61,315 nt of DNA from a bacterium (GTDB lineage Bacteria > JAJRZV01). A program made the translations under genes and the position numbers. Position 1 is the stretch's first letter. Every line of letters begins with the position of its first letter. Location of the stretch: contig JAJRZV010000072.1 in NCBI GenBank assembly GCA_024275095.1, positions 1-61,315 of the forward strand, given 5' to 3'. Shown here in pieces: positions 156 to 29,298 of this stretch. The notes beneath the pieces were generated by a model. It was not told where the DNA came from. It was given only the letters and a program-made list of their open reading frames with translations, and ran no database searches.

Positions 156-1172
156 ATGAGGGATTTTAATGTGGCGGTGGTGGGTGCCACAGGCGCCGTG
201 GGAAGAGAGATGATCCGCGTTCTGGAGGAGCGGAAATTTCCGGTCAGAAACCTCAAGCTCCTCGCATCCGAGCGGTCGGCGAGTGAAAAGATTGAATTCA
301 TGGGTGAAGAAATTACGGTTGAGGTGCTCGGTGAGGATGCTTTTGATGGGATAGAGATTGGACTTTTTTCTCCCGGCTCGAAAATATCAGCCGTGTATGC
401 TCCCATTGCTGCCAGGGCAGGAACTGTGGTCATAGATAACACCTCGTACTTCCGTATGGACCCTGATGTGCCACTCGTGGTTCCTGAGGTCAATCCTCAC
501 GCGGTTGCAGGCTTTGAAAAGAAAGGCATTATTGCGAACCCCAACTGTTCCACAATTCAAATGGTAGTGGTTTTAAAACCCCTCCACGATGTTGCACGCA
601 TAAAGCGGGTGGTCGTGGCGACCTACCAGGCTGTCTCCGGTGCAGGGAAGGAAGCCATGGATGAGTTGCACGACCAGACCGTGGCCATTCTCAACATGCG
701 TGAACATCCTCCGCGCGTGTTTCCCCATCAGATTGCTTTCAACCTGTTGCCGCACATTGATGTGTTTCTTGAAAACGGCTATACCAAGGAAGAGATGAAA
801 ATGGTAAACGAGACCAAAAAGATTATGGAGGATGATAGTATTCAGGTATCTCCCACAACAGTACGGGTGCCGGTTTTTATCGGTCACAGCGAGGCCATTA
901 ATGTCGAGTTCGAGAAGCCCCTTTCTGTGGAGGATGCTCGCAGAACCCTTTCCCAGGCTCCCGGAGTGGTGGTCGTGGACGACCCTTCGAAAAACGAGTA
1001 TCCTCTACCTATAAACGCTGCGGGAAAAGACGAGGTTTTTGTGGGGCGCATTCGCGAGGATTTTACAGTAAACTATGGTATTAATTTGTGGTGCGTGGCC
1101 GACAACCTCAGGAAAGGTGCAGCGACCAACGCTGTACAGATTGCGGAAATACTGGCGGAGAAATATTTATGA
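156..1172 (+). CDS. asd: aspartate-semialdehyde dehydrogenase
   Basis: VGATGAVG, NPNCST, YQAVSGAG and DNLRKGAATNAVQI motifs; RBS GGAGG upstream. Confidence 0.97.
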   Translation: MRDFNVAVVGATGAVGREMIRVLEERKFPVRNLKLLASERSASEKIEFMGEEITVEVLGEDAFDGIEIGLFSPGSKISAVYAPIAARAGTVVIDNTSYFRMDPDVPLVVPEVNPHAVAGFEKKGIIANPNCSTIQMVVVLKPLHDVARIKRVVVATYQAVSGAGKEAMDELHDQTVAILNMREHPPRVFPHQIAFNLLPHIDVFLENGYTKEEMKMVNETKKIMEDDSIQVSPTTVRVPVFIGHSEAINVEFEKPLSVEDARRTLSQAPGVVVVDDPSKNEYPLPINAAGKDEVFVGRIREDFTVNYGINLWCVADNLRKGAATNAVQIAEILAEKYL

Positions 1173-2869
1173 CGTTCTTGCGCAAGCTTGTGGTTTCTGC
1201 AGCAGTTTCCAGTCTGATGGTTGTCCCTGCCGCCACTTCTGCCCTTACACTTGAAATTCTTGGGGTTCAGCCTGCTTCCAAAGTGATTTCAGACACAGAT
1301 ACCCTGCGCGTGTACTGGCGGGCGGATACAAGCGGCACCTACAGCATTTCAGTCTCGTCTCAGAACATGACCTCCAGGTATGTTGATGACTACAGGGATT
1401 TGCCTTATAACGCTGGCATTTCGTACAGTGTAACTCTCACTCCGCTCGAGGATCTGGAAAATGATGGTTACACCGTGGATGACGTGTATTACCTTACGGT
1501 GGAATTCAGTGCTTCAGGTAGCACTGTTGATGCCACTGTAAGCACAAGTTTTATTCTCGATAATCCCCCCGAAGCCCCCTCGAATGTACGTGCAACACCC
1601 GGAGACAAGTACGTGCTTATTGAGTGGGACAGGCACAGGGATAACGATATTAAAGAATTTCGCGTGTATTACGATATTACACCTTCTCCCTATCCTTCCT
1701 CCCCTACAGAAGCTGATTACGATAACGTGAAAGTGGTTGAAGGGAGGGAGAGCACGGGCATTGAGATCAACGACCTGTTCAATGGAGAGACTTACTACTT
1801 TTCCGTACAGGCGGTTGACGCTTATGGAAACAGATCGGAATTTTCTGCTGAAATTTCTGCTACCCCCCAATATGAAATGGGATTTTCCAGTTTCAGTGAT
1901 GAAGATGTGGGTTGTATAATCGCGCGTACCGCCGGAAGAGACACCTCTTTAAGTGCCGCTCTTTACAAGTTGCGGAAGATAGTCGGTAACCATTTTCCCG
2001 GTATTGTGAAGTCATATTACGCTTTCAGTGCTGTTATCGCCGTGTTTGAGCATCACAGACCGTTTGAAGGAACCATCGTTCGTTATGTTCTTTTCGCATT
2101 TGTGGCTTCTGCAGGTTTTATCTACAGTGTTCCAGCTGTTTTGCCGGGAGCATTACTGGCCATTGTGATTGGGCTCTCAGGCATAAGGCGTTCACGAAGC
2201 CTGAAAGTTTTGCTTCTGGCTGGAATTGTGTTTTTCAGCACTAATGCTCACGCAGATTCTCCGATGAATTTTTACATGAATTTGAAAGCCGGGAACATGA
2301 AGTTTTCCAAGACTGCTCTCAAGGAGCGGTGGTGGGAAATATACGGACCGGGGGGACATACAGCCCTGATGGGAGATCTGGGGTATGAAATCCCGTGGAA
2401 GCGTTTTGGCACCTGGGTGCTTAACGGTACGGCAGGAATTTTCTGGGAGAGCGGTTACGGACTTGTGGAACAGGCTTCAGGCGAAATAGAGCGAGGTGGG
2501 AAAGACCTTGAATTTTACCTTGTTCCTTTGGGAATAGGTGTTACGTACCTGGCGCGTTTTCTCAAACAACAGTACGTAATACCCTTTGGGGGGGTGGGTA
2601 TTACAGGTTACTTTTTTTCTGAGAGTAAAAAAAACGGAGAAACCATTAAAAAAGGCCGTGTTGGAGGGTACTACTATAGCGTGGGAGCCCTTTTCAATCT
2701 TGACTGGGTTGAACCGGAATACGCGCTGAAGCTTGATGCGGACTCCGGCATTAACCATTCGTATATTTTATTGGAATACCGCTGGTCCATTGTGGACGAG
2801 TTCGGGAAATACAGTGATTTCGATTTTTCCAACAACACCTTTTTTGCAGGACTTGCCTTCGAGTTTTGA
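1169..2869 (+). CDS. secreted FN3-domain protein with CFI-box-CTERM-like segment, fused to a MXAN_2562-like outer-membrane beta-barrel
   Basis: ATG at 1169 overlaps the asd stop (ATGA). Signal peptide MTFLRK...ATSA; FN3 (PPEAPSNV...W...Y..YY...LFNGETYYFSVQAVDAYGNRS); GCIIARTAG..YY box; TM segments; second signal-like RRSRSLKVLLLAGIVFFSTNAHA; barrel ending AGLAFEF. Confidence 0.75.
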   Translation: MTFLRKLVVSAAVSSLMVVPAATSALTLEILGVQPASKVISDTDTLRVYWRADTSGTYSISVSSQNMTSRYVDDYRDLPYNAGISYSVTLTPLEDLENDGYTVDDVYYLTVEFSASGSTVDATVSTSFILDNPPEAPSNVRATPGDKYVLIEWDRHRDNDIKEFRVYYDITPSPYPSSPTEADYDNVKVVEGRESTGIEINDLFNGETYYFSVQAVDAYGNRSEFSAEISATPQYEMGFSSFSDEDVGCIIARTAGRDTSLSAALYKLRKIVGNHFPGIVKSYYAFSAVIAVFEHHRPFEGTIVRYVLFAFVASAGFIYSVPAVLPGALLAIVIGLSGIRRSRSLKVLLLAGIVFFSTNAHADSPMNFYMNLKAGNMKFSKTALKERWWEIYGPGGHTALMGDLGYEIPWKRFGTWVLNGTAGIFWESGYGLVEQASGEIERGGKDLEFYLVPLGIGVTYLARFLKQQYVIPFGGVGITGYFFSESKKNGETIKKGRVGGYYYSVGALFNLDWVEPEYALKLDADSGINHSYILLEYRWSIVDEFGKYSDFDFSNNTFFAGLAFEF

Positions 2870-3672
2870 AGAGACACATTGTTCTTCTTCTTGAATATGA
2901 CGGTACAGATTACGCGGGATGGCAGCGCCAGAGGAGTCTTCCCACCATTCAGGGCACGCTCGAGAATGTGCTGTCTCAGATTCTAAACGAGAGAGTTGTG
3001 CTGCGTGGCAGTTCACGTACAGATGCTGGTGTACACGCTCTGGGACAGGTCGCTGCTTTTGAGACAAAAAATACGATTCCCCTGGAGACATTGCAAAGAG
3101 CAGCGAACGCCCTTCTTCCTTCGTCCATTGTTATCGCGGATGCCTGCGAGGTGGAGGCCCCTTTCAGTCCCCTTCGTGATGCAATTCGTAAGACATACGT
3201 GTACTGCTATTACAATGGGTTTAAACCTTCACCCTTTATCTCACGGTACGTATGGGCCCCTGGAGTCGAACTGGACTGTAAAGTAATGAAGCAGGCGGCC
3301 GCTCTCTGGAAAGGCCGCCGTGATTTTCGCATGTTTATGAACAGTGGCTCTCGGGTGAAAACTACCGTTAGAACCGTTGAACGAATTGAGGTGCACGCTG
3401 TTGATGAGATGATTTTTTTCCTTGTTACAGCAGATGGTTTTCTCAAACAGATGGTACGCAACATGGCAGGTACCCTTGTTATGCTCCTGCGTGGAAAAGT
3501 GGAACTTGAACACATACGGGCCATGCAGCCCCCGGATCCCAAACGCGGATTTCGATACACGGCTCCGGCAAAGGGGCTTTGCCTTCTTCACATAGAATTC
3601 AGAAGAAGCTTGCCTTTGTCTTTCAGGCACAATAAGATTGTGAAAAAAATGAAGGAGTGGTGGCATGAATAA
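2866..3672 (+). CDS. truA: tRNA pseudouridine(38-40) synthase
   Basis: YDGTDYAGWQRQ, SRTDAGVHA, GFLKQMVR and TAPAKGL motifs. Confidence 0.96.
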   Translation: MKRHIVLLLEYDGTDYAGWQRQRSLPTIQGTLENVLSQILNERVVLRGSSRTDAGVHALGQVAAFETKNTIPLETLQRAANALLPSSIVIADACEVEAPFSPLRDAIRKTYVYCYYNGFKPSPFISRYVWAPGVELDCKVMKQAAALWKGRRDFRMFMNSGSRVKTTVRTVERIEVHAVDEMIFFLVTADGFLKQMVRNMAGTLVMLLRGKVELEHIRAMQPPDPKRGFRYTAPAKGLCLLHIEFRRSLPLSFRHNKIVKKMKEWWHE

Positions 3673-5425
3673 GATCAAAATGTCAGCAGTAATTTTTATC
3701 TCGGTTATTGCTTTTATCATTGCAGGTTGTGGAACAGGCAACGTGAAGGAAACCCGCCTTAAAGAAGGTAGAAATTACCTCTCGAGCGGCGAGTACCTCA
3801 ATGCCTATGATTCTTACTCCAAGGTTCTGGAAGAAGACCCGGAAAACTGTGAGGCCAACTATGGATTGCTGCTTTCGGACACCCTTATGCTGATCGATCA
3901 GGTTAACGCGATCCTTGGTCTCGCCAGCGGGTTGGGTTCCACCCTCAGTGCAGCAGCCGGAGGGATGGTTGATCAGATTGTTGCAGCATTCCTCATGCCG
4001 TTTGTTGAACTCTTTGATGAAATGGATAGTGCTGCAGGTGTGATCGAACGCAAAGATTGCACTTTTAATCCAGGGCACATCGTGATTCAAATTGGCACAG
4101 TGGACGACCCTATCGTGCAGGTGGCCCTTATTGGACAGTGGGATCCTCCAGAGGCCCAGTTGATCGGCTCCATGGCCAATGCTGCCAAAGCTATTCTCAA
4201 GCTTGTGCTTTCCGTTGACCTGGATATTCCCCTTGATCCCGTGCTTGCAATTGTTCAGGATTCGGATTCTCCACTCTTGCAAAAGATCAACGCGTGCGAT
4301 TTTACGGACCTCAGCTCCCTTTTTACCACATGTGACTTTGCGGGCATTATGAGGGATCTCGGTTTTGTCATGGACCTCACGTCCACATTTCTCACCTGGC
4401 ATCCGGACAGGGCATACATGTACACGCAGGCTTCGCAGGAACTCTCTGCCGCTCTCAGGCGTGTTGGCGAAGCCATCAGGGGTATCTTCAGCGAGGTGAA
4501 TGACAGCGATGACTATGACAATGTGCTTTACGTTTATGACAAGGACAGGAACGGTGTGTTTTCAGGTCTTAAAAAGGATAACCTCATCATCAATGCTTAC
4601 AAGGTGTATCCCGGTGGATCAACGGCAGAGACGGTTATTGACGAATCATCGCGGTGCCTGTGGCTTCCCAGCATGGGCGAGGATTTCTGCGCGGAGGACC
4701 TTGTAGAACCCCTCCTGTATCCCCTTATCACTACAGACTATGTAAATACTGTGGTCTCATTTATGGAGAGATGGTCTAAGGTGTTTGACGTAAATACCAT
4801 TGAGTCCACGGGTGAAGAACCGGAACCAATCCATCCAGTCGAAATCATGAAGCTTATTCCTATTGATCTCGGGTTTGCGCTGCCTGACGTGATCAGAGTG
4901 AGCCCCTGGAGGTTCTTCGCAACATCTGTGACACAGGATACTGCCGGGCCGCGTGATCTTTTGCCTTACTGGGGTGATCTCAACGGTGATGGTGAATCAG
5001 AGTTCGTGGTAGAAGCAGAATGGCCGGAAGGCAGTACCATCCCGTCCAGCATGACCGATTACGTATTTGCGGGTGATGCCTCTCACTACGTGAAACCCAT
5101 AACCCTTCCCGATGGTTCTCCCATGGGCCTTACCGTGCCTGCTGACTGTGCCTATCTGACGGGCGAGGGTGTGATTGTATACATGGCGCTTCAGGACCCA
5201 TCCTACAACGGTGCACTTGAAGTGAATCTAAGTTCCCTTGACCTTCCATGTACAAACCCATGCGAAACGGAAATTGCAAGTGCGGCTGATGCGGAGGGAT
5301 GGTATTCACCTGTTAAACCTGATGAAGGCTCCACCTGTGGAATCTACGCCGTCAACAAGGTGGTTGGTTATTTCATGTCACAGCTTACAAGCATGCTGTC
5401 GAGCATCCTTTCGCTGTTGCAGTAG
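3665..5425 (+). CDS. uncharacterised lipoprotein with N-terminal TPR-like repeat (paralog 1)
   Basis: Lipobox IIAG-C; TPR-like GRNYLSSGEYLNAYDSYSKVLEEDPEN; Ca-binding-like DLNGDGESE; similar along its length to the next ORF. Confidence 0.8.
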   Translation: MNKIKMSAVIFISVIAFIIAGCGTGNVKETRLKEGRNYLSSGEYLNAYDSYSKVLEEDPENCEANYGLLLSDTLMLIDQVNAILGLASGLGSTLSAAAGGMVDQIVAAFLMPFVELFDEMDSAAGVIERKDCTFNPGHIVIQIGTVDDPIVQVALIGQWDPPEAQLIGSMANAAKAILKLVLSVDLDIPLDPVLAIVQDSDSPLLQKINACDFTDLSSLFTTCDFAGIMRDLGFVMDLTSTFLTWHPDRAYMYTQASQELSAALRRVGEAIRGIFSEVNDSDDYDNVLYVYDKDRNGVFSGLKKDNLIINAYKVYPGGSTAETVIDESSRCLWLPSMGEDFCAEDLVEPLLYPLITTDYVNTVVSFMERWSKVFDVNTIESTGEEPEPIHPVEIMKLIPIDLGFALPDVIRVSPWRFFATSVTQDTAGPRDLLPYWGDLNGDGESEFVVEAEWPEGSTIPSSMTDYVFAGDASHYVKPITLPDGSPMGLTVPADCAYLTGEGVIVYMALQDPSYNGALEVNLSSLDLPCTNPCETEIASAADAEGWYSPVKPDEGSTCGIYAVNKVVGYFMSQLTSMLSSILSLLQ

Positions 5426-5534: not shown

Positions 5535-7394
5535 ATGCCTATGAAAAGAGCAAATTTGTTATTTTTTCTACTTTTGTTGTTTCCCTCGTGCTTTCAGAAG
5601 GTTGGTGAACCCCTTACCCTTGTTGAAAAGGGCAAGAAGTATCTTTCGACCAGTCAATACCAGGAAGCCCTTTCGGTTTTTCAGCAGCTTGAGGCTGAGA
5701 ATCCCAAGAGCTGCGATGCGGCCTATGGTATTTTGCTGGCCCAGGCGGGATTGGGGCTTAATACCTTGAATAGTCTGTTTTCCGTGATTTTTTCCGCCCT
5801 CGGTAGTCTGGGCGGCAGTGACGAGACAACCCTGCCTTCCCTGTTCCCTGTTTATCCACTTCAACCTCTTCAGAACACCTCAACTTCGGATACGATCAAC
5901 AGTATCATAGAGCAGTTTTTCATTCCCTTTCTGTCTCAGTTTCAACAGGTGGAAACGGCTGTACAGCGGATAGAGCAAACCGGCTGTACGTTCTGGCTTG
6001 ACCACTACGTGGTGGACCTCAGGCTTGGAGATATAATATGGGTTTACATGGACCTTCGAGGAGAATGGTCTGTAGTTGAAGCGAAGATTATAGGCGCGAT
6101 TTTTGACCTGATCACCGCTGTGGATTACCTGGTACTTTCGCTTGACCTTAACGTCAACCTTGACCCCATTTTTACCGCGCTCTTGAGGATATTCGTCAAC
6201 TGTACACAGCAGGACGACGTAATGCAATGCGTTAACAACTTTTCCGACAATACGATTCCGTATCCTGTTGCGGATAAACTCCTGGCTATTACAAGGGGCG
6301 ACCTTGTTACCACACTTCGTGCTCTCGGTTTTATTTTTGCAAGAAGCCCCAATTTTCTCGCGTGGCATCCTTCCCGTTACGGGTACTTTCTGGAAGTGGG
6401 AACTGAATTCGCCAGTTCGCTGACCCGGATAGCCGATGCTTTTAATATTCTGATGAACCGGAAAACCGACGTGCCGGGTTATGATTTGCACGATGATCCC
6501 ACGGACGACGTAATTGTTTTCAAGGATAGTGCCACCATTGGTGCGTATGACCCGGACGATGATATTTACATGAACGCGTACAATCCTTTGAAACCAGAGC
6601 TCGAGATGAAGGAGGATAATATCTGTTATAACATATTCATCGGTGTGTCTCCCATAAATGATGACCCCAATGCAATGGAGTGGTGTAAAAATACGTTTTT
6701 CGATGTTTTCAAGTCCATTATTATCTCCGATGCTTTTGCTAAACTTCTCGATTTCATGTATGACTGGGCAAATATTTTCAGTGGAAAGGATCAGGAGGGT
6801 TTAATTCGTCCTGGAGAGTTGAGGGATGTGCTTTTGGGATCTCTGGTGCCGATACCGGATGTGTTTTCTTTTAAACCCCAGGCATGGTTTTCCAAGACCC
6901 CGGATGAATTCCTCCGTACTGTTTCGCCGCCGCGGGAATGGTTGCCGTTTTACAGGGATATGGACGGCGATGAGTACGAGGACTTTGTTGTGGAAGGTGA
7001 GACATACTCTTCTTCATCCACCTATCCGTGCAGTGCAACTTATATCAAATACGGGGATTGTCCACATTTTCCCACCTCGTTCACGTGGTTCAAATCAGCA
7101 ACGCCCCTTAATCTCCAGATTCCTCCGGATTGCGAAGGACCCACAGAGAACGTGTTTCTCCTTTACATGGCCCCACAGGATCCATCTCTGGGGGGTGCGC
7201 TTTACGTAAACCTGGACTCTTCCGAGTTCCCTGTGTGTTCTAATTCCATTGAAGACGCGGTGAGAAACACGGGAGCACCCTACGTATTGCTTACTCCTGA
7301 CACGCAGGGGCGTTACCTTTTCAACAAGGCGCTGAACATTATTTTCAAACAGTTCTCAGGCCTGATTTCCAGTGGTGGTGCCTCGAGTCCCTGA
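5535..7394 (+). CDS. uncharacterised lipoprotein with N-terminal TPR-like repeat (paralog 2)
   Basis: Lipobox-like FPS-C after a hydrophobic stretch; TPR-like segment; DMDGDEYED; motifs shared with 3665..5425. Confidence 0.8.
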   Translation: MPMKRANLLFFLLLLFPSCFQKVGEPLTLVEKGKKYLSTSQYQEALSVFQQLEAENPKSCDAAYGILLAQAGLGLNTLNSLFSVIFSALGSLGGSDETTLPSLFPVYPLQPLQNTSTSDTINSIIEQFFIPFLSQFQQVETAVQRIEQTGCTFWLDHYVVDLRLGDIIWVYMDLRGEWSVVEAKIIGAIFDLITAVDYLVLSLDLNVNLDPIFTALLRIFVNCTQQDDVMQCVNNFSDNTIPYPVADKLLAITRGDLVTTLRALGFIFARSPNFLAWHPSRYGYFLEVGTEFASSLTRIADAFNILMNRKTDVPGYDLHDDPTDDVIVFKDSATIGAYDPDDDIYMNAYNPLKPELEMKEDNICYNIFIGVSPINDDPNAMEWCKNTFFDVFKSIIISDAFAKLLDFMYDWANIFSGKDQEGLIRPGELRDVLLGSLVPIPDVFSFKPQAWFSKTPDEFLRTVSPPREWLPFYRDMDGDEYEDFVVEGETYSSSSTYPCSATYIKYGDCPHFPTSFTWFKSATPLNLQIPPDCEGPTENVFLLYMAPQDPSLGGALYVNLDSSEFPVCSNSIEDAVRNTGAPYVLLTPDTQGRYLFNKALNIIFKQFSGLISSGGASSP

Positions 7395-14314: not shown

Positions 14315-14388
14315 GCGCCTGTAGCTCAGCTGGACAGAGCACTGGACTACGAATCCAGGAGTCGCAGGTTCGAATCCTGCCAGGCGCG
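14315..14388 (+). tRNA. tRNA-Arg(ACG), CCA not encoded
   Basis: Acceptor stem GCGCCTG/CAGGCGC, D-arm AGCTCAGCTGGACAGAGC, anticodon arm CTGGA-CTACGAA-TCCAG, T-loop GGTTCGAATCC. Confidence 0.97.
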
Positions 14389-15105: not shown

Positions 15106-16938
15106 AAAGCTCAGAATACGTTATTGGTATTTCTGCTTTTTACCATGATTCAGCAGTAGCGGTTCTCAAAGACGGGGAAATTCTCTGTGCTGCGCAGGAG
15201 GAGAGGTTTACAAGGAAGGAACACGATCCATCGTTTCCATCGAATACCTGAAATGGTGCCTGGAGTATTCAGGAATTTCCACGGATAACACCCATTGCTG
15301 TCGCGTTTTACGATAACCTCTTCTCAAATTTGAGAGGCTTTTGGAGACATATTATGCTTTTGCTCCGAGAGGTTTTACGTCTTTTTTCAGAGCCATACCT
15401 GTTTGGATAAAGGAGAAGGTCTTTTTAAAAAAGATCATTCGTGAAGAGTTTAAAAAGGCCGGGGCGGACACTGGTGTGAACATTCAAATAGGAGAAGATA
15501 TTCCCCTTTTGTTCCCAGAACACCATCTTTCCCATGCAGCGAGTGCCTTTTATCCATCACCATTTCAAAGAGCCGCTGTGGTTACAGTAGATGGGGTTGG
15601 TGAATGGGCTACTGCTTCAATATGCAGGGGTGAGGGGAAGAATCTGGAGAAAATAAAGGAAATACACTTTCCCCATTCTCTCGGGCTTTTATATTCCGCT
15701 ATTACATAACGGCAGTCCAGAAGATGAGCGTACCAGAAAATACATACGGTTAATTCTTGATCATTTAATAGATGTAAAAGATGACGGTTCGATCTGGCTG
15801 AACATGGAGTATTTTGATTATGCCACAGGATTGAAGATGGTGAAGGATGAAAAATGGACAGAAATTTTTGGCATACCTCCGAGGAAACCGGAAACAGAGC
15901 TTACCCAGGAGTACTGCGACCTCGCTCTCGCCATACAAAAGGTTACGGAAGACATCATGTTAAAGATGTGTTCGTATGCCAGGAAGATCACCGACGAAAA
16001 ACACCTTGCTCTTGCCGGTGGAGTTGCACTCAATTGTGTTGCAAACGGGAAGATTTTGAGGTCAGGACTTTTTGGCGATATATGGATACAGCCCGCGGCT
16101 GGAGATGCAGGTGGTACCCTTGGGGCTGCTTATGCTGCATGGCACATATACCTTAATAGAGAGCGGCATACCAATGGCGGTTCAGATAAAATGAAGGGTA
16201 GTTGCCTTGGTCCTGCATTTTGTGATGATGACATTGAGAAGGTGCTGCGAAAGTTTAATGCACATTGTGTATAAAGTACGAGAATTTCGATGAATTATGT
16301 AATGTGACTGCAACATACATTGCAGAAGGCAAGGTGGTGGGCTGGTTTCAGGGAAGAATGGAATGGGTGCCAAGGGCGCTGGGCAATCGCAGTATCCTCG
16401 GGGATGCGAGAAATTCGGAGACTCAGAAGAGGCTGAACCTTAAAGTAAAATTTCGAGAGTCATTTCGTCCTTTTGCGCCTTCAGTTCTTTATGAAGATGC
16501 AGGTGAATATTTTGAAATTGACCGCCCTTGTCCCTACATGCTTCTGGTTGCTGATGTAAAAAAGTCACGAAGGACTCCTCTGCCGGAAAATTACCATGCC
16601 ATGAGTGTAAGAGAGAAACATTACGTTATCAGAAGTGATATTCCAGCAATAACACATAGACTTCAGCGCAAGACTGCAAACAGTTCACAAAGAAACCAAT
16701 GAAAAGTACTGGAGGCTCCTCCAGGCTTTTAAGAAACTAACAGGTTACAGCGTTATTGTAAATACATCATTCAACGTGCGGGGTGAGCCGATTGTGATGA
16801 CTCCAGAAGATGCTTACATCTGCTTCATGCGCACGGATATGGATTATTTTGGTAATGGGAAACTATCTGCTCGACAAAACAAATCAGCCCCCCTGGAAGG
16901 AAACCAGAGACTGGAGAGAGGATTTCGTTCTTGATTAA
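15102..16938 (+). pseudogene. carbamoyltransferase (NodU/CmcH/SxtI family), multiple frameshifts and a deletion
   Basis: GISAFYHDS, AQEERF, EHHLSHAASAF, DGVGE, PHSLGLLY, AGGVALNCVANG, QPAAGDAG, PRALGNRS, KFRESFRPFAP and NTSFNVRGEP are spread over several frames; the GEYKxMGLAP segment is missing near 15710. Confidence 0.9.
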
Positions 16939-20668: not shown

Positions 20669-21589
20669 TTACCCCATCACCCTTAAAAATTCAAAGTCCC
20701 CTCGACCTGAAGGCACAAACCGCGCGATGGCCAGAAGCTCACCTTCTTCGCTGGTAAGTGCTACGACCTCTCCAAAAGCCGGTGGGTTCAAGTAACGAGT
20801 TTGACTGAGTCGTGGGGGGATTCCGTGTCTGACTCTGTAGATCATTTTCGGGCCAACCACCAGGGTTTTGAGACCGAGCTTTTCCGGGATAATATCGTGA
20901 AGCACGGCATCGACATCGCCTCTTTCCAGTGCCTCGATGGCTTCGTGTAAGGGGATTGCCTGTTCAAGCGAAAACGGCCCGGTTTGTTCACGCCGCAGCG
21001 CCGAAAGGGTTCCCAGTGTTCCAAGCTCACGTGCAATGTCTCTCGCAAGAGCCCTCACGTAAGTTCCTTTTGAACAGCGGATTTTTACAACCGCTTTGTC
21101 ACCCTCAATTCGACCCAGTTCCATTGAGTATATCTTGATTTTTCGGGGTTTCATGCGGGGTTTGCGCCCTTTTCTCACGAGCCGATAAGCTCTTTCGCCA
21201 TTGACTCGAAGTGCTGAATATTCAGGTGGAATCTGTTCCATTTCTCCTGTCAGACGTGTAAGAACATCCTGTAGTCTATACGGATCTATACCGGAAAAAT
21301 CCGCGTCCCGTTCAATGACCTCACCGGTAATGTCCAGAGTATCTGTCTGTACACCAAAAAGTATTTCTGCTGTATAGACCTTATCTGCATTAAGTAGCAG
21401 GGACGTCAACTTGGTCGCCTTGCCCACTGCAATGGGAAGTACACCCGTTGCCATGGGATCGAGAGTGCCGAGGTGTCCCACCTTGGTATCTTTGAAGTAC
21501 CGGCGCATCTCTTCCACAATATCGTGGGATGTAAATCCCGCCGGCTTGTCAACAATAATGAACCCGCTGTGTTCCTGTTTGGGTTTCAC
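20669..21589 (-). CDS. truB: tRNA pseudouridine(55) synthase
   Basis: DKPAGFTSHD, KVGHLGTLDPMATGVL, CSKGTYVR. Confidence 0.96.
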   Translation of the reverse strand: MKPKQEHSGFIIVDKPAGFTSHDIVEEMRRYFKDTKVGHLGTLDPMATGVLPIAVGKATKLTSLLLNADKVYTAEILFGVQTDTLDITGEVIERDADFSGIDPYRLQDVLTRLTGEMEQIPPEYSALRVNGERAYRLVRKGRKPRMKPRKIKIYSMELGRIEGDKAVVKIRCSKGTYVRALARDIARELGTLGTLSALRREQTGPFSLEQAIPLHEAIEALERGDVDAVLHDIIPEKLGLKTLVVGPKMIYRVRHGIPPRLSQTRYLNPPAFGEVVALTSEEGELLAIARFVPSGRGDFEFLRVMG

Positions 21590-22581
21590 CGCGTCCTCAC
21601 TTCCTGAAGCAAGGTGAGTAACCTTTTTTTCACGGCTTCGTATGAACCCTCTACTTCAGCACCTGCAGCCTGTCTGTGGCCGCCTCCTCCCATGCGTGCT
21701 GCGATTTCAGCTGCATTTATTGTAGAGACTTTTGAACGAATACTTATTTTAAAGTGGTTATTTTTGATTTCACGTATAAGAAAGGCCACGTCTACGTCTC
21801 TAATGTCACGGGCAAAATTAACGAATTCTTCTGTATCTTCCGGGCGTGCCCCTGTTTTTTCATACATGTGTGTGAACACCGAGATAACAGATGCTTTCAA
21901 ATCAGGATAAAACTCGAGTGTCTGCAACGCAAGTGCAAGAAGTTTCATCCGCCTCAGAGGATAACTTGAATATATGGAGGAGTACACGAGATGGGGATTG
22001 ACACCTCTTGTCACCAGATCAGCTGCCATGACGAGACACTCGGCATTCGTATTGGAGTAACTGAAGTTGCCTGTATCAGCCACCACTCCTGCGTATAGAT
22101 TTTCCGCAACTTCTATTCCAAATTCGGGTACGAGTTTTTTGATGATCCGGTACACGAGGACTGCTGTTGCTGCTGCGGAAGAATCAACATAATTCATGTG
22201 TCCAAACAGAGGATTGGATTCGTGGTGATCTATGTTCAGCACCTCTTTACCCTGTACGTATTTTCCAAATTCTTCGTGCACGCGCTGTAGTCCTGCAGAA
22301 TCAAGAACAATTACACATTCTGGTTCAAAATCAGCAGGAAGTTGAGTTTCTATAAGCTGACAGCGGGGTAAAAACCTCAAAACCTCTGGTACACCTGAAG
22401 TATTGAATGAACGACAATTCACACCTTTTTGAGCAAGTGCGAGGTGAAGAGCGAGCTGTGATCCAAGAGCGTCGGCTTCAGGATTTTTGTGAGATGCAAT
22501 GAGGCATGAAGTGAGATGACTCAGGCGGTGAACCACGGCTTCCAGTTCTTCCTGAAGTTTATGGACACTGGAATCTTTCAC
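21586..22581 (-). CDS. nrnA: DHH/DHHA1 phosphoesterase (NrnA-like nanoRNase/pAp phosphatase)
   Basis: H.NPEADALGS, IDHH, DTGNF, SIRS, GGGGHRQAAG. Confidence 0.88.
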   Translation of the reverse strand: MKDSSVHKLQEELEAVVHRLSHLTSCLIASHKNPEADALGSQLALHLALAQKGVNCRSFNTSGVPEVLRFLPRCQLIETQLPADFEPECVIVLDSAGLQRVHEEFGKYVQGKEVLNIDHHESNPLFGHMNYVDSSAAATAVLVYRIIKKLVPEFGIEVAENLYAGVVADTGNFSYSNTNAECLVMAADLVTRGVNPHLVYSSIYSSYPLRRMKLLALALQTLEFYPDLKASVISVFTHMYEKTGARPEDTEEFVNFARDIRDVDVAFLIREIKNNHFKISIRSKVSTINAAEIAARMGGGGHRQAAGAEVEGSYEAVKKRLLTLLQEVRTR

Positions 22582-22910
22582 TCGGATTCTTCCCCTTCAT
22601 TCATCGTTGTGTAGAGAGGGTCAAATTCAAAAGTAAGCTGTGGGATGCGTTTGATGTTGAGATTTTTAAGCATTAAATGCCTGATAAAGCCTGATGCGCG
22701 CTGAAGTCCTTTCTGCACTTCTTCAATGCGTTCTTCTTCCCGTACGTAGAAATAGACGACTGCTGAACTTAGATCTTCCTTGACTTCAACTGAGGTAACA
22801 GTGACATCCCTTACGCGTGGGTCCTTTACGCGTTTGAGAAGAATATTGGAGATTTACTCCCGGAAGAGTGTTACAAGTCTTTCAGATCTTCTGTATGGTA
22901 AATATCCCAT
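22578..22910 (-). CDS. rbfA: ribosome-binding factor A with an in-frame TAA at codon 19 (absent from the ORF track)
   Basis: MGYLPYRRSERLVTLFRE*ISNILLKRVKDPRVRDVTVTSVEVKEDLSSAVVYF...GLQRASGFIR...KRIPQLTFEFD; canonical position after infB and DUF503. Confidence 0.9.
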
Positions 22911-22912
22911 AA

Positions 22913-23200
22913 TTAGAACTTTATGATCTCCATATAATGACTCTCAACGCTTCCTGGAGCAATACGGTCAATAAAGTTAAGAGCTTTATCAAGCACAGAG
23001 TTGACAAATTCGTGCGATGTTCCAACTGTGACGAACGAAAGCTCTCCCTGCTTTTTGCTGTTCTGGAGTCCTGTTTCTGCAACAGAGGCGTTAAATTTAT
23101 TTTGCAAACGCTGTTTGATCGAATTCATTCTTTTGCGTTTTTCCTTAATGGAGTACGGTTGAGGTATCTGCAAGGTGACCACCAGAATTCCTATGAACAT
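22913..23200 (-). CDS. DUF503 (YlxP) family protein
   Basis: SIKEKRK...LQNKFNASVAE motif; lies between infB and rbfA. Confidence 0.88.
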   Translation of the reverse strand: MFIGILVVTLQIPQPYSIKEKRKRMNSIKQRLQNKFNASVAETGLQNSKKQGELSFVTVGTSHEFVNSVLDKALNFIDRIAPGSVESHYMEIIKF

Positions 23201-28932: not shown

Positions 28933-29283
28933 GTGGAGCAGGCCAGGTGGTCGCCCTGGAGTTTTTACTTCAGGGAGGAAAGTCCGGACTCCACAGGGCA
29001 GGGTGGTCCTGTAGTATTATGCTGCAGGACGCCGGGTGACCGGCGGAAAGTGCCACAGAAACCATACCGCCCTGCAGCAGTACGGTAGGTATGTTGCGGG
29101 GTAAGGGTGCAACGGTGGGGGTAAGAGCCCACCCGCGGTGGCGGTGACGCTGACGCGCGGTAAACCCCACCCGGAGCAAGGCCAAATAGAGGGGCGTTTG
29201 AGGCTGGCCCGGCCGAGCCCCAGGGTAGGCCGCGTAGATTAATGACCACCCTCGACAGAATCCGGCTTACAGGCCTGCTCCAC
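28933..29283 (+). ncRNA. rnpB: RNase P RNA (type A variant lacking P18)
   Basis: GAGGAAAGTCC, AGTGCCACAGAAA, GGTAAGAGC, GGTAAACC, GGAGCAAG and ACAGAATCCGGCTTA conserved blocks; P1 GTGGAGCAGGCC/GGCCTGCTCCAC; TATAAT upstream. Confidence 0.96.
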
Positions 29284-29298
29284 CAGGTTTTTTCGTTA

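Follow-up and report, generated by a model that had tools for sequence, protein, structure and literature searches.

How a single open reading frame (ORF) could supply the cell envelope with two separate proteins is the question raised by a gene in a bacterial DNA stretch of 61,315 nucleotides (contig JAJRZV010000072.1 of GenBank assembly GCA_024275095.1), referred to here in its entirety as the window. The gene lies at nucleotides 1169-2869 of the window. It opens as a secreted protein with fibronectin type III (FN3) domains and closes as an outer-membrane beta-barrel, and between the two are a cysteine-containing box (Cys box) and a second signal peptide-like segment. Judged from its sequence and that of its relatives, the gene is a genuine fusion that joins the two genes of a surface module in one precursor, from which two separate proteins are probably cut. 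This interpretation as a two-product precursor has the strongest support and rests on comparative and topological inference. The source genome is a metagenome-assembled draft of 136 contigs.

Layout of the Fused Gene

The fused gene (plus strand) is one open frame of 566 amino acids, uninterrupted from start to stop. Its parts are listed by window coordinates, strand, and content.

1169..2869 (+), whole fused gene (P0001), 566 amino acids, colinear with homologues at 45% and 30% identity
1169..1243 (+), first Sec signal peptide, residues 1-25, candidate site TSA↓L (read by eye)
1250..1558 (+), FN3/Ig-like beta-sandwich domain 1, residues 28-130
1559..1867 (+), FN3 domain 2, residues 131-233
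1868..2122 (+), conserved linker and Cys box, residues 234-318 (Cys249 at 1913-1915), helical, with an amphipathic/hydrophobic helix at 302-318
2129..2185 (+), transmembrane helix 1 (TM1) of the sorting signal, residues 321-339, predicted to cross from the periplasmic to the cytoplasmic side
2186..2206 (+), basic cytoplasmic loop RRSRSLK, residues 340-346, with 4 K/R and 0 D/E
2207..2254 (+), hydrophobic core and c-region of the internal signal, residues 347-362, candidate signal peptidase I site AHA↓D
2255..2866 (+), predicted 8-stranded outer-membrane beta-barrel of MXAN_2562 type, residues 363-566, ending in AGLAFEF

A first-pass annotation of this DNA had drawn much the same map. It described one uninterrupted frame that overlaps asd (ATGA) and truA (TTGA), and read in it an N-terminal Sec signal, Ig/FN3-like domains, a divergent CFI-box-CTERM-like motif at about 1910-2090, hydrophobic transmembrane segments, a second signal peptide at 2186-2254 with an AxA site, and a barrel of about 200 amino acids ending in AGLAFEF. 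The map held up throughout. The frame is open and its homologues are colinear without stops, both junctions were read and both neighboring genes have NCBIfam support, and the other parts were recovered by the family, structure, and hydropathy results given below.

The Hairpin and the Internal Signal

Two hydrophobic segments were found by hydropathy in the middle region, at residues 302-318 and 321-340. TM1 lies within the second of these and aligns with the MYXO-like and CFI-type transmembrane helices of homologues. The sequence that follows TM1 (residues 340-362) is laid out as RRSRSLK / VLLLAGIVFF / STNAHA↓D, with alanine at positions -3 and -1 and a 14-residue hydrophobic core. The call of an internal Sec type I signal is a rule-based reading that looks for a basic n-region, a hydrophobic core of 7-15 residues or more, and small residues at -3 and -1, all of which are present. 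RRSRSLK has a double role: it ends the sorting signal as its tail and opens the second signal as its n-region. TM1, this loop, and the second hydrophobic segment are defined here as the hairpin.

In the predicted topology, the FN3 domains lie outside, TM1 runs inward, the basic loop is cytoplasmic, and the second segment runs outward. This arrangement fits the positive-inside rule, and in it the AHA site faces the periplasm. An uncut segment would hold the barrel at the inner membrane, and cutting is therefore topologically necessary for a barrel of the outer membrane.

The same features recur in the relatives of the gene. By rule-based scan and hand reading, the loop has 2-5 K/R and 0-1 D/E in each of the 19 hairpin-bearing homologues, and the hydrophobic core is 12-18 residues long, with a small-x-small site no more than about 7 residues away. 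In 18 of the 19, the start of the barrel profile is 0-15 residues past the candidate site. Where the barrel is encoded by a separate gene, its N-terminal signal peptide occupies the place of the internal segment, and a [DE]SPxxF start motif follows in both forms. In the near pair G131 and G287, identity is 71% in the hairpin and 93-97% in the remaining three parts of the protein, and all features of the hairpin are retained. Low identity with the features kept indicates that the hairpin behaves like a targeting sequence. A heuristic scan of the 1629 source-genome frames of at least 250 amino acids found the signal-hairpin-signal design in one secreted protein; the two other matches look like cytosolic enzymes.

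The Cys Box

By profile comparison, the Cys box is a divergent CFI-box-like domain. Eight divergent boxes (including that of the window) and nine canonical boxes from orthologues were realigned separately and compared with hhalign, which gave a probability of 96.9% and an E-value of 1.4e-10 over 58 columns. The term "divergent CFI-box-like" is correct because of this profile homology to the canonical boxes of orthologues. One orthologue, in genome G010, itself carries a canonical CFI box (97.8 bits, residues 589-657 of 706). Cys249 is kept in 23 of 23 fused homologues. The box of the window protein is internal (residues 244-318 of 566) and does not have the extreme C-terminal location of NF041770, the curated CFI_box_CTERM model; 204 barrel residues come after the hairpin.

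A second protein of the same design is encoded on contig C108 of the source genome (locus L034, 19..2568, plus strand). Its large ectodomain is Ig/PKD-like, and its CFI box is canonical (57 bits). These are followed by a transmembrane helix, a short loop, and a second hydrophobic segment ending in AHA↓LDSP. Its C-terminal domain contains five CxxCH haem motifs and has weak cytochrome c3/c7/MtrC-like Pfam matches. On its sequence, this protein suggests that a box, hairpin, and signal may deliver cargo other than a barrel, and the cytochrome case hints at a general polyprotein grammar of "tag, then next cargo".

Fused and Split Homologues

The MXAN_2562_fam model (NF040596) was searched against 401 genomes, consisting of the source genome and 400 others related to it at domain level only. 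Matches were present in 40 of the 401 and in none of 14 control genomes. Loci were read for 29 of the 40 barrel-bearing genomes. The first-pass annotation had called for a survey of fused and split homologues, and these loci divide into 15 fused and 14 split, as follows.

Hairpin-bearing fusion (n = 13): G000, G001, G037, G066, G105, G131, G149, G158, G264, G285, G287, G305, G349
Hairpin-less fusion (n = 2): G084, G392
Two-gene form (n = 14): barrel starts independently and has a signal peptide of its own; in GC-rich genomes, several long open frames are spurious

The open frames at the other 11 loci are 207-393 amino acids in length, which is too short for a fusion. At the split loci, the upstream protein stops after the Cys box, a transmembrane helix, and a basic tail, and the barrel gene opens with an ordinary signal peptide. 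The first-pass annotation had noted that in myxobacteria the barrel is a separate gene beside an anchored FN3-like protein, and the split forms were indeed found next to CFI-box or MYXO-like FN3 proteins. In G010, a 114-amino-acid gene (contig C71, locus L004, 2508..2852) lies between the CFI-box protein and the barrel, inside the asd-truA interval. By its sequence, it may encode a GIY-YIG-type nuclease.

An exhaustive protein search returned, among the best 150 matches, nine fused relatives, one stand-alone barrel (P0121), and one fragment. Six of the fused relatives are colinear in one stretch (P0005, P0022, P0002, P0045, P0056, and P0091) and three match in two stretches (P0072, P0099, and P0119). 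P0005 is 577 amino acids long and shows 45% identity over residues 18-566. The G001 homologue is colinear at 30% identity and contains no stops. A word-indexed whole-protein search recovered only the query itself, and a cluster look-up of 10 homologues returned no names. The related-locus search gave no conserved stretch with a 10-row alignment, and with a 4-row alignment it gave a single locus, in an unclassified metagenome-assembled genome, apparently G001. Look-alike protein clusters are commonest in Myxococcota and Bdellovibrionota, which serves as a lead only.

A barrel tree was built from 38 rows. The fused/split label switches nine times on it, and the starred branches force at least three changes. 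A single fused clade is rejected by the approximately unbiased test (p 0.0009), the group having been named after the tree was seen. As far as the sequences tell, fusion or fission has happened repeatedly.

The Outer-Membrane Barrel

NF040596 matches residues 384-566 of the fused protein with an E-value of 1.7e-25 and 89.9 bits (92.6 bits in the genome search). The 89.9 bits lie under the curated cut-off of 100 bits, and P0002, an orthologue at 30% identity, scores 115 bits with the same model. Pfam OMP_b-brl gives a sub-threshold match at residues 349-566. In the hidden Markov model search, NF040596 and the FN3-side family NF045522 are the best NCBIfam matches, and the families that the first-pass annotation had named were the right ones.

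The barrel was folded alone with AlphaFold2 (AF2) from a 28-row alignment. The model of these 204 residues has eight long strands and two loop helices, with a predicted local distance difference test (pLDDT) score of 91.4 and a predicted template modeling score of 0.85. A confident barrel is likewise present at residues 368-565 of the whole-protein model. The chain ends in F, and the C-terminal residue is F or Y in 25 of 29 barrel rows. The MXAN_2562 family is characterized by a small outer-membrane barrel that ends in an aromatic residue and is encoded immediately downstream of a Cys-sorted FN3 protein; this trait is present here, with both proteins in one frame. The structural matches of the barrel are as follows.

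NspA, Z 16.0, root-mean-square deviation 3.2, 153 residues aligned
Legionella Dot/Icm-associated small porin, Z 16.0
OprF N-domain, Z 15.2
OmpW, Z 15.1
OmpA, Foldseek E 9.9e-8

The predicted fold is that of the small 8-stranded barrels (NspA, OmpA N-domain, OmpX/Ail, OmpW, and OprF N-domain). The window barrel differs from these in its low identity to them (10-16%), its two predicted loop helices, and its proposed production as the C-terminal half of a precursor. A PDB sequence search with the barrel profile found nothing significant, the best match being AlkL (E 0.12).

The barrel had been described in the first-pass annotation as an anchor or translocator, and only the first of these roles is retained. 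Type Va autotransporters have 12 strands and a lumenal linker helix, and the window model has 8 strands. Among the Foldseek matches, autotransporter barrels rank only weakly (for example 4mee, E 1.7e-3). Eight strands leave no room for a protein-conducting pore, and for that reason the translocator was set aside in favor of an anchor or partner. On the model, then, a translocation pore is unlikely.

The N-Terminal Half

The first signal peptide is hydrophobic at residues 7-19, is modeled as a helix at 2-17, and has small residues at the candidate site. The whole-protein AF2 model, built from a 23-row alignment, has a mean pLDDT of 78.8. Its sandwich domains at residues 28-130 and 141-231 are confident, with block-mean pLDDT values of about 85-91 in domain 1 and about 88-96 in domain 2. 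Foldseek places tandem FN3 pairs at the top of the matches to this half (for example 4bq8, E 2.7e-9). Domain 2 is matched by Pfam fn3 at residues 136-231 (E 2.8e-6) and by MXAN_2561_fam (SgmI, NF045522) at residues 125-240 (E 1.7e-9, 37.6 bits, profile positions 159-265 of 304). The latter match covers the FN3 part only, and its 37.6 bits fall short of the full-length cut-off of 150 bits.

Export and Sorting Machinery

The source genome encodes a signal peptidase I (159.8 bits), BamA (500.9 bits), and three secretins. The BamA match is split on contig C111 (about 20796-22993, minus strand), with profile positions 2-561 in one frame, positions 550-741 in the next, and a TGA inside. The cause may be a frameshift or an error of sequencing, or else the gene, whose function is essential, may be broken.

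One protein of the source genome contains a myxosortase core (104.3 bits, cut-off 100). It is encoded by a CPBP-family gene of 220 amino acids located after mutS (locus L073, 1168-1830). No myxosortase core scores above the cut-off in the 14 control genomes. Across the 401 genomes, barrel and myxosortase core are both present in 29, each is present alone in 11, and neither is present in 350; kin among these genomes are not independent, and a Fisher value for these counts therefore cannot be taken as a probability. The core is carried by 12 of the 15 genomes with a fused gene. It is present in 15 of the 21 genomes that have both box and barrel, compared with 3 of the 41 that have the box alone. 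The myxosortase core tracks the barrel rather than the CFI box.

A rule-based scan of the source genome found that 28 of 3102 frames end in a cysteine, a transmembrane helix, and a basic tail. About 12 of the 28 look by eye like MYXO-CTERM-type tails on large secreted proteins, and none of them reaches the cut-off of TIGR03901, the MYXO-CTERM model. These proteins (contigs C9, C20, C25, C52, C54, C55, C86, C88, C115, C118, C120, and C73) share a Gly/Ser-rich Cys motif, a transmembrane helix, and an Arg/Lys tail, and they look like the client set of the single myxosortase-core gene. The tail normally terminates the protein in this organism; the fused gene is the exception.

Proposed Processing of the Precursor

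In the proposed route, the first signal peptide would direct the FN3 domains and the Cys box to Sec for export to the periplasm. Transfer would be stopped by the sorting-signal helix (residues 321-339), RRSRSLK would remain in the cytoplasm, and export would be restarted by the second hydrophobic segment (residues 347-356). Signal peptidase I would cut after AHA362. The freed barrel of 204 amino acids would then pass by way of periplasmic chaperones and the BAM complex (beta-barrel assembly machinery) to the outer membrane. The N-terminal product would be held in the inner membrane by the two-helix hairpin until a sorting protease, most likely the myxosortase-type CPBP enzyme of the genome, cuts at or near Cys249. 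By analogy with MYXO-CTERM proteins, the FN3 protein would next be lipid-modified and moved to the cell surface, where it would work with the barrel as its anchor or partner. The sequences and models establish the architecture and its conservation, how split and fused forms relate, the fold class of the barrel, and that the genome has the machinery required. We infer both cleavages, the lipidation, the surface exposure, and the binding of the two products.

Several observations weigh against this route. The curated CFI-box model (NF041770, cut-off 40 bits) has no match to the fused protein at E ≤ 1, and a whole-genome search with it at E ≤ 0.01 returned only another gene, on contig C108. The fused gene is also not among the three weak TIGR03901 matches in the genome (cut-off 20 bits, best match 17.4 bits). 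AF2 confidence is low at residues 249-363 (block-mean pLDDT about 39-54), with helices predicted at 260-320. After the signal peptidase cut, the sorting signal would keep an extra helix that canonical substrates lack. Of the 62 CFI-box genomes, 44 are without a myxosortase core (E ≤ 1e-18), and myxosortase as the general CFI-box enzyme was rejected as unsupported on this count. Finally, the P0099, P0119, G392, and G084 proteins join the Cys box directly to the barrel and have no hydrophobic segment past the N-terminal signal. These hairpin-less proteins show that a cut between the halves is not made in every member of the family, and they count against its being essential throughout. A permanent covalent link is therefore tolerated in some members, and sorting may not be the only function of the Cys box.

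The same four proteins support the alternative that no cut is made between the halves. The product would then be a single polypeptide, either anchored in the inner membrane by the hairpin or with its FN3 domains covalently tied to the barrel as in an autotransporter. The four form one clade (support 99) placed beside the clade of the window, although this join is weak (support 77), and the helical Cys-box region directly before the barrel resembles an autotransporter linker helix. For the window protein, an uncut product is nevertheless unlikely. The c-region and the first barrel strand are 0-5 residues apart, and the hairpin would keep the barrel from the outer membrane. The barrel has 8 strands where classical autotransporters have 12, and its matches are OmpA, NspA, and OmpW. 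The signal-peptide features of the hairpin are, moreover, present in all 19 homologues that bear one. Loss of a hairpin made of two helices does not alter the topology on either side of it, and for this reason the hairpin-less form is probably derived from the hairpin-bearing one. This form also suggests that, in the working state, the N-terminus of the barrel lies near the box.

A second alternative is that the barrel is made from an internal translation start, in which case the fusion would be only apparent at the protein level. Some homologues have a Met in or near the second hydrophobic segment, and in the window a TTG codon stands at the start of the hydrophobic core. A start at this TTG would forfeit the basic n-region, however, and the window has no ATG or GTG and no convincing ribosome-binding site ahead of the segment. 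As the upstream frame also reads through without a stop in 15 genomes, an internal start is considered improbable.

A third alternative is that the fusion arose in assembly or sequencing, through a stop or frameshift that was missed between two genes. The genome is a draft of 136 contigs, and the TGA that breaks its BamA match shows that errors or pseudogenes are present in it. An artefact is nonetheless very unlikely. Fourteen other genomes and 8 further metagenomic representatives carry this fused frame, at identities as low as 30%, and the hairpin is conserved among them. Nor would reading by chance through an intergenic spacer yield a short loop that serves both as tail and as n-region.

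Genomic Neighborhood

The two genes flanking the fused gene are as follows.

156..1172 (+), asd (aspartate-semialdehyde dehydrogenase), NCBIfam NF011456, 520 bits
2866..3672 (+), truA, TTG start, NCBIfam TIGR00071, 165.6 bits

The asd stop and the ATG of the fused gene overlap as ATGA, and the TGA of the fused gene overlaps the sole in-frame truA start as TTGA. One or both of asd and truA adjoin the module in 22 of the 30 genomes whose barrel loci were compared, and both do so in 11 (flanks mostly 1.5 kb). In many proteobacteria this slot is occupied by fimV, for which the literature search gave nothing usable. FimV/HubP proteins are characterized by LysM and cytoplasmic TPR domains. Neither is among the Pfam matches of the fused protein at E ≤ 1, which are only fn3, OMP_b-brl, DUF4998, Pur_ac_phosph_N, and fn3_4. 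In genome G028 (contig C8, locus L010), an FN3 protein in a 623-amino-acid frame has a weak match to the query and adjoins truA. No barrel was found in that genome, and this protein is possibly a barrel-less occupant of the same slot.

In the phylogenetic profiling reported for Synerg-CTERM, aspartate-semialdehyde dehydrogenase obtained a perfect score, which the author dismissed as chance (Haft preprint 10.1101/2023.06.07.544157). Given the asd-module-truA linkage, the Synerg-CTERM co-profile of asd may not be chance.

Just past truA are two large proteins with no Pfam or NCBIfam family match (3665-5425 and 5535-7394, plus strand). The product of 3665-5425 has a lipoprotein-like start, with a hydrophobic N-terminus followed by a cysteine. 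At 15804-16702 (plus strand), two short adjacent frames match profile positions 296-350 and 388-483 of 556 of a NodU-type carbamoyltransferase and have the appearance of a broken or fragmented gene. Ordinary RNAs in the window are a class A RNase P RNA (28935-29285, plus strand, 261 bits) and one tRNA (14315-14388, plus strand).

Comparison with Known Systems

The closest comparisons for the two halves come from Myxococcus. MXAN_2561, or SgmI, is reported to be implicated in type IV pilus-dependent motility. MXAN_2562 is described in the same source as a predicted barrel, apparently co-transcribed with sgmI and with the same transposon fitness profile, and the pair is tied there to type IV pilus-dependent motility and attachment (bioRxiv 10.64898/2026.08.28.747804). 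As in the fused gene, a Cys-sorted FN3 surface protein is followed by a small outer-membrane barrel, and both the sgmI/MXAN_2562 families and the fusion co-occur with myxosortase. The window module differs from the Myxococcus xanthus pair in being one frame joined by a TM-loop-signal hairpin, and in having a long Cys box of divergent CFI type instead of a MYXO-CTERM. Its scores lie below the curated cut-offs (89.9 of 100 and 37.6 of 150 bits). Its asd-truA placement was not seen at the Myxococcus-like locus L014.

MYXO-CTERM is described as a tripartite signal with an invariant cysteine, and surface display of its carriers as requiring type II secretion (PMC11980579; Haft preprint 10.1101/2023.06.07.544157). 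MrtX is reported to cleave MYXO-CTERM in a Cys-dependent manner and to be required for surface anchoring (PMC11980579). The window protein shares with this system a Cys motif, a transmembrane helix, and an Arg-rich cytoplasmic tail, and its genome has a myxosortase-core gene. It differs in that the tail continues into a second exported protein and in that TIGR03901 stays below its cut-off throughout the genome. With CFI-box-CTERM (NF041770), the window protein shares the invariant cysteine, LRxxRD-like and YY motifs, an amphipathic helix, a transmembrane helix, and a basic cluster. The window box is, however, internal rather than C-terminal and is missed by the curated model.

Precursors cut at internal signal peptides include Bradyrhizobium fbcH, which yields cytochromes b and c1, and the plant thylakoid protein PsbY. 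Like the window gene, these have one frame, two membrane or exported products, and a signal peptide-like separator. Their products belong to the inner membrane or the thylakoid, whereas those proposed for the window gene are an outer-membrane barrel and a sortase-type substrate. To our knowledge, internal-signal-peptide polyproteins are well known in viruses and organelles and rarely described in bacteria. Within the library searched, the literature search found no paper with the term CFI-box-CTERM, no bacterial paper linking internal signal peptide, polyprotein, signal peptidase, and outer membrane, and no paper on an internal-signal polyprotein that releases an outer-membrane barrel.

Meaning of the Fusion

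A wider and more speculative proposal is that the module belongs to a three-part display unit, consisting of a myxosortase-type protease, an SgmI-like FN3 protein with an invariant cysteine, and a dedicated 8-stranded barrel. This unit would be found in many families outside Myxococcota, usually between asd and truA. The barrel would be the receptor or carrier for the Cys-modified C-terminus of one client, and the long CFI-type box would be its barrel docking domain and more than a sorting tag. We hold this proposal to be possible at best. Such a unit would explain the repeated fusion, the shared basic cluster, and the viability of the hairpin-less form in which box and barrel are joined.

The occurrence of fused and split forms is a natural Rosetta-stone link, which implies that an SgmI-type protein and an MXAN_2562-type barrel work as a pair. 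The co-occurrence with myxosortase extends the known range of that sorting system past Myxococcota. The organism offers a small and simple test system, in which a single protease stands beside some twelve candidate clients and one client in fused form. The hairpin-less form and the cytochrome-bearing protein of contig C108 are direct handles on the role of the CFI-type box.

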